Source of the DNA: Escherichia phage FL12
Reading direction: 5' to 3' (one strand)
Sequence record: PP400786
Length of the DNA: 64,000 nt
In this document: one piece after another, positions 11,921 to 62,916 of the stretch
Position numbering within the stretch: the first letter of the stretch is position 1
How the letters are laid out: each line of letters begins with the position of its first letter
Position numbers and translations under genes: made by a program
The notes under the pieces: model-generated
The model's database searches: none
What the model was told of the DNA's origin: nothing
Seen by the model: only the letters and a program-made list of their open reading frames with translations

Positions 11921-12117
11921 TTTGAATGCTCTATAATTAATTTTAAGGCTTCTTCGCTGACAAAAATTTCGTCAGGACCTTCTTCTATAACCCAATCAAC
12001 CATACGAAGTTGATTAGTTAAGAGCTCACATACGAGCTCCTTGTTATAATCTTTAAATAGCTGGTTAATACGTTTCTTATGGGCTTTCTTAAGCTGACGC
12101 TTATTTAAACGAGCCAT
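11917..12117 (-). CDS. small basic hypothetical protein
   Basis: ORF track 66 aa. Confidence 0.45.
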   Translation of the reverse strand: MARLNKRQLKKAHKKRINQLFKDYNKELVCELLTNQLRMVDWVIEEGPDEIFVSEEALKLIIEHSK

Positions 12118-12635
12118 TAATAACCTCGGTCTTGACGAGCGAAGTTTTCAGCATTTTTCAGGTAATAAAGTTTAAAGATTTCTTCAGCTGACATTCCAAG
12201 AGCAATAAATTTATTCATGAAAAAGTGAAATTGGTCAATCAGTTCAAATTTAATTTCAAGCTGATCTTCGGGAGATAAATCTTGAATTTTCTTGGATTGC
12301 ATTTCAGAATAACGTTTCTTCCAAGGTTTCCATACAGCAGAAGCTTCTTTTTCACCATTACTCATACCACCAAGAGAAGTATATAGTTCGCGAGTTTCAT
12401 CTGCGATATAATCGTCTTGGTTTCGCAACCAAGCAAGAACTTCTCCTGCGGTTTCAAGTGAATCAGGATGACGATTTGTTTCTGGTTTATCATTAGCCAA
12501 ACGAATCTGTAAATGCCGCTGCATATCAAGCATAACCTGCAGTGGGTCAATATTGTGCATAATATTCTCAGCATATGCACGATTTGCTTTATCAACACCT
12601 TCGATCAAATGAGCACATTCATTAAAGTAAGCCAT
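12117..12635 (-). CDS. 56: dCTPase/dUTPase (MazG-like)
   Basis: start moved to ATG 12633-12635 (MAYFNECAHLIEG; RBS AAGGAAAAA) giving ~171 aa as T4 gp56; MotA-box-like TTGCTTTA plus TATAAT upstream. Confidence 0.7.
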   Translation of the reverse strand: MAYFNECAHLIEGVDKANRAYAENIMHNIDPLQVMLDMQRHLQIRLANDKPETNRHPDSLETAGEVLAWLRNQDDYIADETRELYTSLGGMSNGEKEASAVWKPWKKRYSEMQSKKIQDLSPEDQLEIKFELIDQFHFFMNKFIALGMSAEEIFKLYYLKNAENFARQDRGY

Positions 12636-12706
12636 TATTTTTCCTTTCAATTCATGGGTTAGTAGATTAATTATACAATAAATATATAAAGCAATAAGGA
12701 GGACAT

Positions 12707-12907
12707 ATGGTACAAAAATTAATGGCACTTGTTAATGCCATAAAAGGTAATAAAAAACGTATAGCTTTTACTATTTCTGCTATGGTAGGAATTTTACTCT
12801 GGAACTTTATTCTATCACCTGTTGCAATTGCGCATGGTATTAATATTCCAGTAGTTACTCTTGATACATTTGTAGATTTAGCATTTGCTTTAGTTGGGTT
12901 GATTTAA
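12707..12907 (+). CDS. plus-strand small membrane protein (two predicted TM segments)
   Basis: ORF track 66 aa; strong SD AAGGAGG 5 nt before ATG; sits in the 268-nt gap between genes 56 and 61. Confidence 0.45.
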   Translation: MVQKLMALVNAIKGNKKRIAFTISAMVGILLWNFILSPVAIAHGINIPVVTLDTFVDLAFALVGLI

Positions 12908-13932
12908 ATCTTAGCATATTTAGATAGCCGCATTTTAGCCATCAACCCCTGGGCAATATTATTTTTCATATATTCCATAATTTGTTCAGGGGTTGCACCT
13001 TCCTTTCTAATCATATCATTGACATCTTTTGATTTCCAGGGAGATTTATCCCAAAACATAACCCTTTCTCCTGCATCAACTAATTTAGTCATTCGTTTGA
13101 TAGTGTCAGGGTGACGAGGTTCATTATCTAAAACCCACACTCGTCTATCTTTAAATGGAACAACTTCTAGGTCTAATTGACCACCTGTAATAGCTATACC
13201 ATTTTCAATAAAAAGTGAATCTATAGGTCCTTCTAGAACATATACATCACCATCTTTAACTCGTTCAACTCCATAGATTTTTGTTGCCTCAGGATAAGCT
13301 TTGATGGTGATATATTTTTGAGGAGCATCTTTCTTTAATGCACGTCCTTGAAAAGACTCAGCTTTTCCATTAGCATTATAAATTGGAATAACAAGACGAG
13401 GCTCAGATATTTCCTTTTTATATGTTCCCGGTGCTATACTATTAACTAATTTAGGCCATTCGGTTGTAAACCAAAGATATTTCCATTTATCCTTTGGAAT
13501 ACAACGAGCTTTTACGTATTTTATAATTGGGTGGTCTTCCGCCAGTTTATCTAATCTAACACATGACGGAAGAGATTTAATTATTTTCTTCTCAGGTTGT
13601 TTAGGAAGTTCTTTAGGTTTTTCTACTGGACGACTTTTACCTTTTTCTTTTCTTATTTCAAAGATATACTCACGATATAAATCAGGTTCAAACTCCTTTA
13701 AATATATTCCGATTGGTGCATGATAGTTACAGTTATAACAATGAATATTTCCTTCATTATTATCACCATAATACCATCCACGAGCTTTATTCTGGTCGGT
13801 TTTTGAATCTCCACAAACAGGGCATCTAAACCGCAATTTAAAAGTTGAACTATTATTTACTTGTGTGAATTTAGGTAAATGAGCTAATGCACGGTATGCA
13901 AACTCATTATCAATCCAAGGTATTGATGACAT
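12904..13932 (-). CDS. 61: DNA primase
   Basis: 342 aa as T4 gp61; zinc ribbon CPVCGDSK...CYNC. Confidence 0.9.
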   Translation of the reverse strand: MSSIPWIDNEFAYRALAHLPKFTQVNNSSTFKLRFRCPVCGDSKTDQNKARGWYYGDNNEGNIHCYNCNYHAPIGIYLKEFEPDLYREYIFEIRKEKGKSRPVEKPKELPKQPEKKIIKSLPSCVRLDKLAEDHPIIKYVKARCIPKDKWKYLWFTTEWPKLVNSIAPGTYKKEISEPRLVIPIYNANGKAESFQGRALKKDAPQKYITIKAYPEATKIYGVERVKDGDVYVLEGPIDSLFIENGIAITGGQLDLEVVPFKDRRVWVLDNEPRHPDTIKRMTKLVDAGERVMFWDKSPWKSKDVNDMIRKEGATPEQIMEYMKNNIAQGLMAKMRLSKYAKI

Positions 13933-17725: not shown

Positions 17726-18893
17726 TAAATTCTTCCATATCACTTAACTGTTCGAGGTCAGTTTCTAAATTAGCAGCTGATTTACTTTTACTTTCTGGAG
17801 ATTTAAATTTTTCAACCTTTGAGTTAATCAATTCATCAACTTCAGCTTCAACAATTTCATTACTATCAATAGCACCTAACTGATAAGCACGTTTAATAGC
17901 ATCTCGGAATGGTTGATGCTTAAATAAAGGACCCCAGAATGTAGTGCAGTTGGTATCTTTTGCACGCCAAGATTTTTCTTCGCGAATCATCTCGCCGGTT
18001 TCTTCATCAAGAAATTCACGAGCATACCAGCCATTTTTAGGTTTTACCACGAATCCTAATTCTAGAGCCATATCTAACAATCCAGAATAAGGATCGATAC
18101 CACCGTCAAATTTAACATCAATAAAGAATTTACTTTTTTCTTTAACGGTACGAGATTTTTCTACATTTAGAACAAATTGATACCCTTGAAGATCAGAACC
18201 ATCTTTAATCTGGCGTTTACCGATAATGAATACGGTATCAGCCGAATACATCGGTCCAGTACCACCTCCCATAACTGTTTTACTAAACATTTCTTGTGTT
18301 TCGTATGTATGGTTAATAGCAATACATGGAATATTTTTAGTACTAAAATAGGGAGTTACGATACGAAATAAGCTTTTCATTGTTTTAGCTCTAGTCATAT
18401 CACTAACAACTTTTTCATTTAAAGCATCTTCAGTTTCTTTCTTAGAAGCTAAGTTACCAAGTGAATCGATAAAAACGACTACCTTTTCGCCACGTTCAAT
18501 TGCATCCAATTGATTAACCATGTCAATACGTAATTGCTCAAGTGATTGAACCGGAGTATGAATTACTCGTTCTGGATCGACTCCCATAGACCGCAAATAA
18601 GCAGGAGTAATACCAAATTCACTATCATAAAACAAACATACTGCATCAGGATATTGACGCATGTAAGATGACACCATTGTTAATCCAAAGTTTGATTTAA
18701 ATGATTTTGATGGACCTGCCAAAATTAACAGACCAGATTGCATACCACCAGTAATTTCACCAGAAAGTGCAATATTCATCATAGGAATTTTTGTTCGAAC
18801 TACATCTTTTTCATTAAAGAATTTAGATGCTGTTAATTCTGCAGTCAATTTAGAAGTAGAAGCTTTAATCAAACGAGATTTTAAATCAGACAT
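17718..18893 (-). CDS. uvsX: UvsX recombinase (RecA-like)
   Basis: 391 aa as T4 UvsX; Walker A GPSKSFKS. Confidence 0.9.
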   Translation of the reverse strand: MSDLKSRLIKASTSKLTAELTASKFFNEKDVVRTKIPMMNIALSGEITGGMQSGLLILAGPSKSFKSNFGLTMVSSYMRQYPDAVCLFYDSEFGITPAYLRSMGVDPERVIHTPVQSLEQLRIDMVNQLDAIERGEKVVVFIDSLGNLASKKETEDALNEKVVSDMTRAKTMKSLFRIVTPYFSTKNIPCIAINHTYETQEMFSKTVMGGGTGPMYSADTVFIIGKRQIKDGSDLQGYQFVLNVEKSRTVKEKSKFFIDVKFDGGIDPYSGLLDMALELGFVVKPKNGWYAREFLDEETGEMIREEKSWRAKDTNCTTFWGPLFKHQPFRDAIKRAYQLGAIDSNEIVEAEVDELINSKVEKFKSPESKSKSAANLETDLEQLSDMEEFNE

Positions 18894-62830: not shown

Positions 62831-62916
62831 TTAAAATCCTTGAAATAATTTATTGGTTATTAATTATTTATCACGTTGTTATATGTAACAGCATTCTCCG
62901 AGCGATTCAAACTAAA

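Follow-up and report, generated by a model that had tools for sequence, protein, structure and literature searches.

The closest described counterpart of the gene considered here is dam.1 of phage T4, which belongs to a family that is already known, annotated in hundreds of phage genomes and uncharacterised. The name dam.1 is given in the T4T record (HM137666) and in UniRef, and newer T4 records also annotate the gene. Most relatives label the orthologue simply as "hypothetical protein" (e.g. RB32ORF030w, RB55_p033). Few genomes have been studied as thoroughly as that of T4, but its RefSeq annotation (NC_000866) omits this conserved gene: the gap between dam and 61 carries no annotation even though the ORF is intact at 17738–17938. 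Our search of the literature on T4 ribosome profiling, small ORFs, start-site maps and gene names returned no mention of dam.1 or RB32ORF030w. Two promoter classes of T4 are relevant to the locus. The middle promoters follow the consensus (a/t)(a/t)(a/t)TGCTT(t/c)A, then 11–13 bp, then TAnnnT. The late promoters have TATAAATA at positions −13 to −6; the T at −13 is poorly conserved in most T4-like phages, where A or T is common, and in T4 proper the late-promoter consensus is reported to be highly conserved (PMC1524935). The form NATAAATA has been described for cyanophage S-PM2 (PMC2984593). A T4 dRNA-seq study reports 150 phage start sites, 22 of which are antisense (bioRxiv 10.1101/2024.04.04.588121).

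We analysed a 64,000-nucleotide stretch of Escherichia phage FL12 (PP400786), hereafter the window. An initial inspection of the letters and their open reading frames (the sequence-only reading) had drawn attention to a 66-codon plus-strand ORF with an ATG start, lying in a minus-strand region and filling a 268-nt gap between genes 56 and 61. These elements are present as described. The ORF occupies 12707–12907 on the plus strand and encodes 66 amino acids followed by a stop codon. On one side lies gene 56 (dCTP pyrophosphatase; 12117–12635, minus strand), whose true start, MAYFNEC, is at 12635, and on the other lies gene 61 (DNA primase; 12904–13932, minus strand), both placed from the ORF list and the annotation of Escherichia phage AV122. 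The gap between them thus runs from 12636 to 12903. Gene 61 is convergent with the ORF, and the stop codons of the two overlap by 4 nt (12904–12907). The 1.6 kb around the ORF is 99.4% identical to phage AV122, in which the corresponding CDS is identical. Of the 21 features that AV122 has in the 3 kb to each side, this CDS alone lies on the plus strand. The same 1.6 kb matches 553 phage records, mainly Tequatrovirus (T4-like) of E. coli and Shigella. A strong Shine-Dalgarno (SD) sequence, AAGGAGG, stands at 12696–12702 on the plus strand, as had been noticed; its spacer to the ATG at 12707, first counted as 5 nt, is 4 nt long (ACAT).

The encoded protein matched PHROG 2024, a family in the category of unknown function, with E = 1.4e−31 over residues 2–66, corresponding to profile positions 1–65 of 65. 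It was 97% identical to the RefSeq allele of T4 (2 differences) and 98.5% identical to that of other T4 records. Judged by its sequence, the ORF is orthologous to dam.1 of T4 and thus represents an accessory gene conserved among T4-like (Tevenvirinae) phages; its treatment as an unrecognised ORF in the sequence-only reading did not hold. It shares with T4 dam.1 and other members of PHROG 2024 (e.g. RB32ORF030w, RB55_p033, S16 gp16.1) the same position tail-to-tail with 61, the same length, the SD and an upstream motif described below. The difference from T4 lies in the surroundings: T4 has the dam methyltransferase gene between 56 and dam.1, whereas in FL12, which lacks dam, the upstream neighbour of the ORF is gene 56 with its probable middle promoter. 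What our analysis adds to the known family is a conserved late-promoter motif, a constant architecture with a predicted topology, and the spread of the family into temperate phages.

The content of the slot between 56 and dam.1 varied among the phages. It holds dam in T4 and is empty in FL12 (12636–12706 of the window). In IMGVR_UViG_2974787500, the same slot is occupied by an ORF of 186 aa on the minus strand, which may contain a PD-(D/E)XK-like motif. The gene upstream of dam.1 in ECO07P3 is a hypothetical one of 651 nt, at the place taken by gene 56 in relatives.

We then considered how far the ORF is conserved as a protein-coding gene. An alignment-based search for the locus yielded no stretch conserved enough to serve. 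Single-protein scans of viral and metagenome contigs gave 14 loci, and annotated phage records were then added individually. Using tblastn, the ORF was found in 890 phage records, ~500 of them at no less than 90% identity. More distant orthologues (27–55% identity) occurred in Mosigvirus, Gaprivervirus, Kanagawavirus, Jiaodavirus, Gelderlandvirus (S16 gp16.1) and unclassified T4-like contigs. The frame conservation that the sequence-only reading had named as a check extends across at least six Tevenvirinae genera. In these the orthologue has the same place and orientation, with 61 on one side and 56, dam or some other inserted gene on the other, and a length of 57–70 aa. The reading frame was open in all 30 loci examined, and the convergent arrangement with the primase gene, also proposed at the outset, was kept in 29 of them. 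A strong SD (AAGGAGG, TAAGGAG, AGGAGG or GGAGG) preceded every normally oriented orthologue, despite differing flanks. Since frame, length, SD and position are all kept across genera whose DNA is not alignable, the conservation of the ORF goes beyond chance.

Codon-substitution analysis, the second check named, agreed with this. Across 16 distinct Tequatrovirus alleles, dN/dS in the frame of the ORF was 0.18, the lowest of the six frames, and variable sites at codon positions 1, 2 and 3 numbered 10, 3 and 14, respectively. Amino-acid changes among these alleles were conservative (V/I, A/T, N/S). These comparisons show a genuine gene whose protein product is under purifying selection. The alternative, an ORF open by chance in a non-coding spacer with no content other than the terminator of gene 61 and the promoter of gene 56, would fit the lack of annotation in RefSeq T4, as well as the fact that part of the gap is taken up by a terminator-like hairpin and a middle-promoter match on the minus strand (both described below). 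However, the frame open in every locus, the conservation of length, SD and motif across genera, the low dN/dS and the absence of the hairpin outside Tequatrovirus make such an ORF extremely improbable.

The upstream motif is AATAAATA (12677–12684, plus strand), a late-promoter-like sequence of the T4 gp55 type with the core ATAAATA at 12678–12684. It matches TATAAATA at 7 of 8 positions, with A instead of T at −13, and sits 12 nt before the SD and 23–30 nt upstream of the ATG. To place this match in a comparative frame, ten representative loci were used whose upstream sequences are unrelated (the neighbour being 56, dam or another inserted gene). The NATAAATA motif, with the core ATAAATA, occurred 12–45 nt upstream of the ATG in nine of the ten, against 0.014 expected per locus from local density; most other ATAAATA copies in these loci were the soc late promoter. 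Some variation was apparent between genera. The Kanagawavirus locus carries a perfect TATAAATA, phage S16 has TATTAAATA in place of ATAAATA, and in Jiaodavirus the ATG-proximal motif is too close to keep the SD in the transcript, so that only a distal copy at −41 would be workable.

ATAAATA was also depleted across the window, with 17 copies found compared with 42.6 ± 6.4 expected from dinucleotide-preserving shuffles. The copies that stood closely before an SD and an ATG were those of soc (11725, minus strand), 49 (39719, minus), e (58576 and 58589, minus), a 70-aa ORF (52019, minus), a 188-aa ORF at 62865 (minus) and the dam.1 ORF. The soc, e and 49 genes offer the nearest comparison within the same window: each has (T/A)ATAAATA, 13–30 nt, then an SD and an ATG, the gene 49 site has A at −13 as does the dam.1 motif, and soc is, as dam.1 would be, a late-type gene among early and middle genes. 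Unlike dam.1, which lies on the opposite strand, all three share the strand of their early neighbours.

The sequence-only reading had found no plus-strand promoter. This stands for promoters of the sigma-70 type, of which our scan of the plus strand upstream of the ORF found none, but not for the late type, since a motif of that type is present in FL12 and in nearly all relatives. A gp55-type late promoter is likely, with a predicted start at ~12690 and a leader of ~17 nt that would hold the SD. The late expression that had been suggested as a possibility is thus plausible from the conserved NATAAATA motif 23–30 nt upstream of the ATG. Its strength may be low, because its −13 position is A while the T4 consensus is reported to be highly conserved. 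In FL12, the conservation of the motif could also stem in part from an overlapping probable middle promoter on the minus strand; against this, the motif is retained in T4 and other phages whose contexts are quite different.

That minus-strand element is a MotA-type middle-promoter match of gene 56 (12670–12695), read from the sequence as the box ATTGCTTTA at 12695–12687, an 11-nt spacer and the −10 element TATAAT at 12675–12670. The ribosome-binding site of the ORF had been described as overlapping the MotA box; the box in fact abuts the SD, and the two do not overlap. The plus-strand late motif falls inside the spacer of the middle-promoter match, which would make the two promoters divergent and overlapping. 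A terminator-like hairpin was also detected by scanning on the minus strand at 12722–12741, inside the 5′ end of the ORF. It has an 8-bp stem followed by the U run UAAUUUUUGU (−9.9 kcal/mol, z = −2.4), and possibly ends transcription of gene 61 shortly ahead of the middle-promoter match of gene 56. The hairpin was found only in Tequatrovirus and is not kept in Mosigvirus, Gaprivervirus, Jiaodavirus or Kanagawavirus; given this confinement, we rejected it as the real cause of the long gap.

On the plus strand, our scan found no convincing terminator 3′ of the ORF, so that a late transcript would run on antisense into gene 61. The gene 61 message itself overlaps the ORF only at its 3′ end, through the 4-nt coding overlap. 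Together with the late motif placed inside the middle-promoter spacer, and with a 4-nt stop overlap that recurs in most genera, this raises the question of whether the main product is an RNA, i.e. a late transcript antisense to the 61 message from a promoter that occludes the gene 56 middle promoter, the peptide being secondary. We regard this as very unlikely. It is the protein that is under selection (dN/dS 0.18), and a motif and the architecture of the protein are kept at 27% identity. The SD found before every normally oriented orthologue also argues against it. Furthermore, the overlap is dispensable, as the ORF ends 108 nt short of the primase gene in Gaprivervirus and 18 nt short in Jiaodavirus, and family members outside the T4-like phages have no primase neighbour. 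In view of the selection on the protein, the lack of primase overlap in these two genera and the members without a primase neighbour, RNA-level effects are possible by-products and not the main point. A GC hairpin lies between the ORF and the primase gene in Jiaodavirus; it was considered as a terminator and rejected on its features.

The protein of FL12 has a GRAVY value of 1.25, with a hydrophobic plateau over residues 17–45 that contains a full-length membrane helix at residues ~19–42. The small membrane protein of the sequence-only reading is thus upheld by prediction, with a qualification as to its two hydrophobic segments: one is a clear span, while the other, residues ~47–66, is hydrophobic, contains two Asp and is helical in the model only at 52–65. 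The AlphaFold model, built on a 17-sequence alignment, had a pLDDT of 79 and helices at residues 2–12, 16–42 and 52–65. The alignment of six genera revealed invariant residues that included W32, N33, P38, G44, P48 and L52. At the level of the family, alignments and a table of 14 members define a common architecture, to which the FL12 protein conforms: a basic N-terminal segment, a membrane helix of ~23 residues that carries W-N at its centre, the loop G-x2-L-P-x3-L-(D/E), and, at the C-terminus, a second helix that is short and hydrophobic. Searches outside the family were uninformative with respect to function. Pfam and NCBIfam scans at E ≤ 10 returned no family match, and a fold search retrieved only the family itself from BFVD and nothing meaningful from the PDB, the 66-residue helical model being too simple for inference from its fold.

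The distribution of charged residues was consistent across the 14 tabulated members, with 2–8 K/R in the N-terminal segment before the helix and 0–2 after it. In FL12, there is no K/R after residue 18, so that trypsin would leave the rest as a single hydrophobic peptide of 48 residues, ill suited to proteomics; the protein ends in ...DLAFALVGLI. By the positive-inside rule, the charge skew predicts an N-in, C-out orientation. An A-x-A-like site (A-I-A/HG) is present and could allow cleavage by signal peptidase. However, the h-region is ~23 aa long compared with 10–15 aa for a Sec signal peptide, and six of the 14 tabulated relatives have T or F as the −1 residue of the site; the long hydrophobic core and these −1 residues together favour an uncleaved anchor. 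The dam.1 product is therefore predicted to be a single-pass inner-membrane protein with its N-terminus inside. With this topology, conservation is concentrated at two places, the outer half of the helix (W-N, P) and the periplasmic loop (G-x2-L-P-x3-L-D/E), and this clustering suggests a specific partner of dam.1 in the membrane or periplasm.

We next asked how widely the family is distributed. Searching 1.84 billion representatives with a profile retrieved only 14 clusters, all of 41–72 aa, most of which were T4-like with the same synteny; three lay outside. The members outside the T4-like phages matched PHROG 2024 with E values of ~6e−11 for two that were scanned and 1.8e−11 for the third, P0052. 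One of them belongs to an E. coli prophage inserted in yegD (25 of 5426 genomes), where no other gene separates it from the attachment site, and lies six genes from a pair comprising a lysozyme gene and a DUF2730 gene. Another lies on a siphophage contig between a tail-tip gene and a serine recombinase. The third, P0052, adjoins a RelA_SpoT-domain gene. These contexts hint, from position only, at an envelope-related accessory role in exclusion or lysis.

Some further features of these loci were recorded. The gene of P0052 (59 aa) immediately precedes that for a RelA_SpoT-domain protein of 352 aa (positions 129–1383 of a contig of 2.2 kb), which may be a defence-type neighbourhood. Both siphophage contexts, which are at the ends of temperate genomes, contain a homologous neighbour of 179 or 196 aa (29% identity), as well as a gene for a coiled-coil protein whose N-terminus has a membrane helix; in E. 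coli, PGAP names this gene DUF2730.

The sequence-only reading had placed the ORF among peptides of the holin/antiholin or toxin type. The broader possibility is a lysis-related protein of the inner membrane, whether a holin, an antiholin or a modulator of lysis timing or lysis inhibition. The protein does resemble holins and antiholins (lambda S, T4 T, T4 RI) in being a small, probably late, inner-membrane phage protein. Beyond this likeness, the sole "Holin" label is the source-given name of one orthologue, and one distant member weakly matches a holin PHROG (E = 5e−4). The characters that would mark a holin are, however, missing from FL12. The Pfam and NCBIfam scans, which included the holin families of those libraries, gave no match, and phrog_2024 was the only family matched. 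The protein has one full span, its C-terminus is hydrophobic and it lacks a charged hydrophilic tail. No lysis cassette surrounds the gene, whose neighbours encode the dCTPase and the primase, and the lysozyme gene e lies at ~58.5 kb, ~46 kb away; the lack of an adjoining lysis gene extends to the T4-like phages generally. A dual-start holin (M1/M6) was considered and rejected, as M6 is not conserved and there is no dual-start motif. Moreover, T4 has holin T, antiholins RI and RIII, and spanins, so its lysis set is already complete. A positional point in favour comes from the yegD prophage member and its nearby lysozyme and DUF2730 pair, since the releasin of Mu, with its link to endolysin release, is of the DUF2730 family (PMC9239132). 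Taken together, the holin or toxin assignment was not sustained, and we consider a lysis-related role of any kind unlikely.

A superinfection-exclusion or envelope-protection protein of the inner membrane, which would block DNA entry or guard the infected cell or lysogen, is a somewhat better candidate, but a doubtful one. The distant members with E values of ~6e−11 occupy accessory ("moron") positions of temperate phages, such as the last gene before the attachment site in yegD and the place between the tail-tip and recombinase genes, and P0052 adjoins the RelA_SpoT-domain gene. Accessory positions in temperate phages typically hold exclusion or defence genes, and the logic would be analogous to that of T4 Imm or HK97 gp15, which dam.1 resembles in size class, in inner-membrane location and in having distant relatives in prophage accessory positions. 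On the other hand, no sequence relationship to these or other known exclusion proteins was detectable using Pfam and NCBIfam, and PHROGs returned only the family of unknown function. The timing also differs: T4 imm and sp are early, whereas dam.1 is apparently late and neither early nor lysogenic. The association is, in addition, one of position alone.

The account that we favour, and consider probable as a whole, is that the ORF is the orthologue of T4 dam.1, transcribed late, whose product resides in the inner membrane and binds a partner there or in the periplasm. At late times, RNA polymerase with gp55/gp33 and the gp45 clamp would start from AATAAATA at ~12690 and transcribe dam.1 on its own, the ~17-nt leader carrying the SD. 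The protein would insert in the inner membrane with its N-terminus in the cytoplasm and its last ~24 residues in the periplasm, and would bind its partner through the W-N / G-x2-L-P-x3-L-(D/E) surface. The late transcript would continue antisense into gene 61. As to function, our best guess is an accessory role at the level of the envelope other than that of a holin: the protein may exclude incoming phage or modulate the timing of lysis. A further step, which we put forward only tentatively and think is probably wrong in at least some part, would make dam.1 an overlooked late inner-membrane protein of T-even phages that acts in late envelope events (sensing or blocking of secondary infection, or lysis timing), with its divergent late promoter helping to silence both the middle promoter of gene 56 and the message for primase.

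If dam.1 were indeed to act on lysis timing or exclusion, it would be a new component in two classic T4 phenomena. The practical gain is modest, and consists of a corrected reference annotation together with a membrane location and an expression class for PHROG 2024. The comparative evidence supports a true gene with its own predicted late promoter, which is open to simple experiments in T4.

Among the loci compared, a single departure from the conserved orientation was observed. In Klebsiella phage vB_KpnM_17-11 (MW239157.1), the orthologue, an ORF of 192 nt, has the reverse orientation to that in all relatives, and the inverted segment extends precisely from ATG to TAA (471–662 of the extract, compared with 1471–1662 in a relative). 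The flanks are collinear at 96% identity, and the inversion leaves the SD stranded at the opposite end of the ORF. An invertible switch was considered and rejected, as the arrangement is a singleton (1 of 144 related records); an artefact of the record or a one-off event probably accounts for the inversion.
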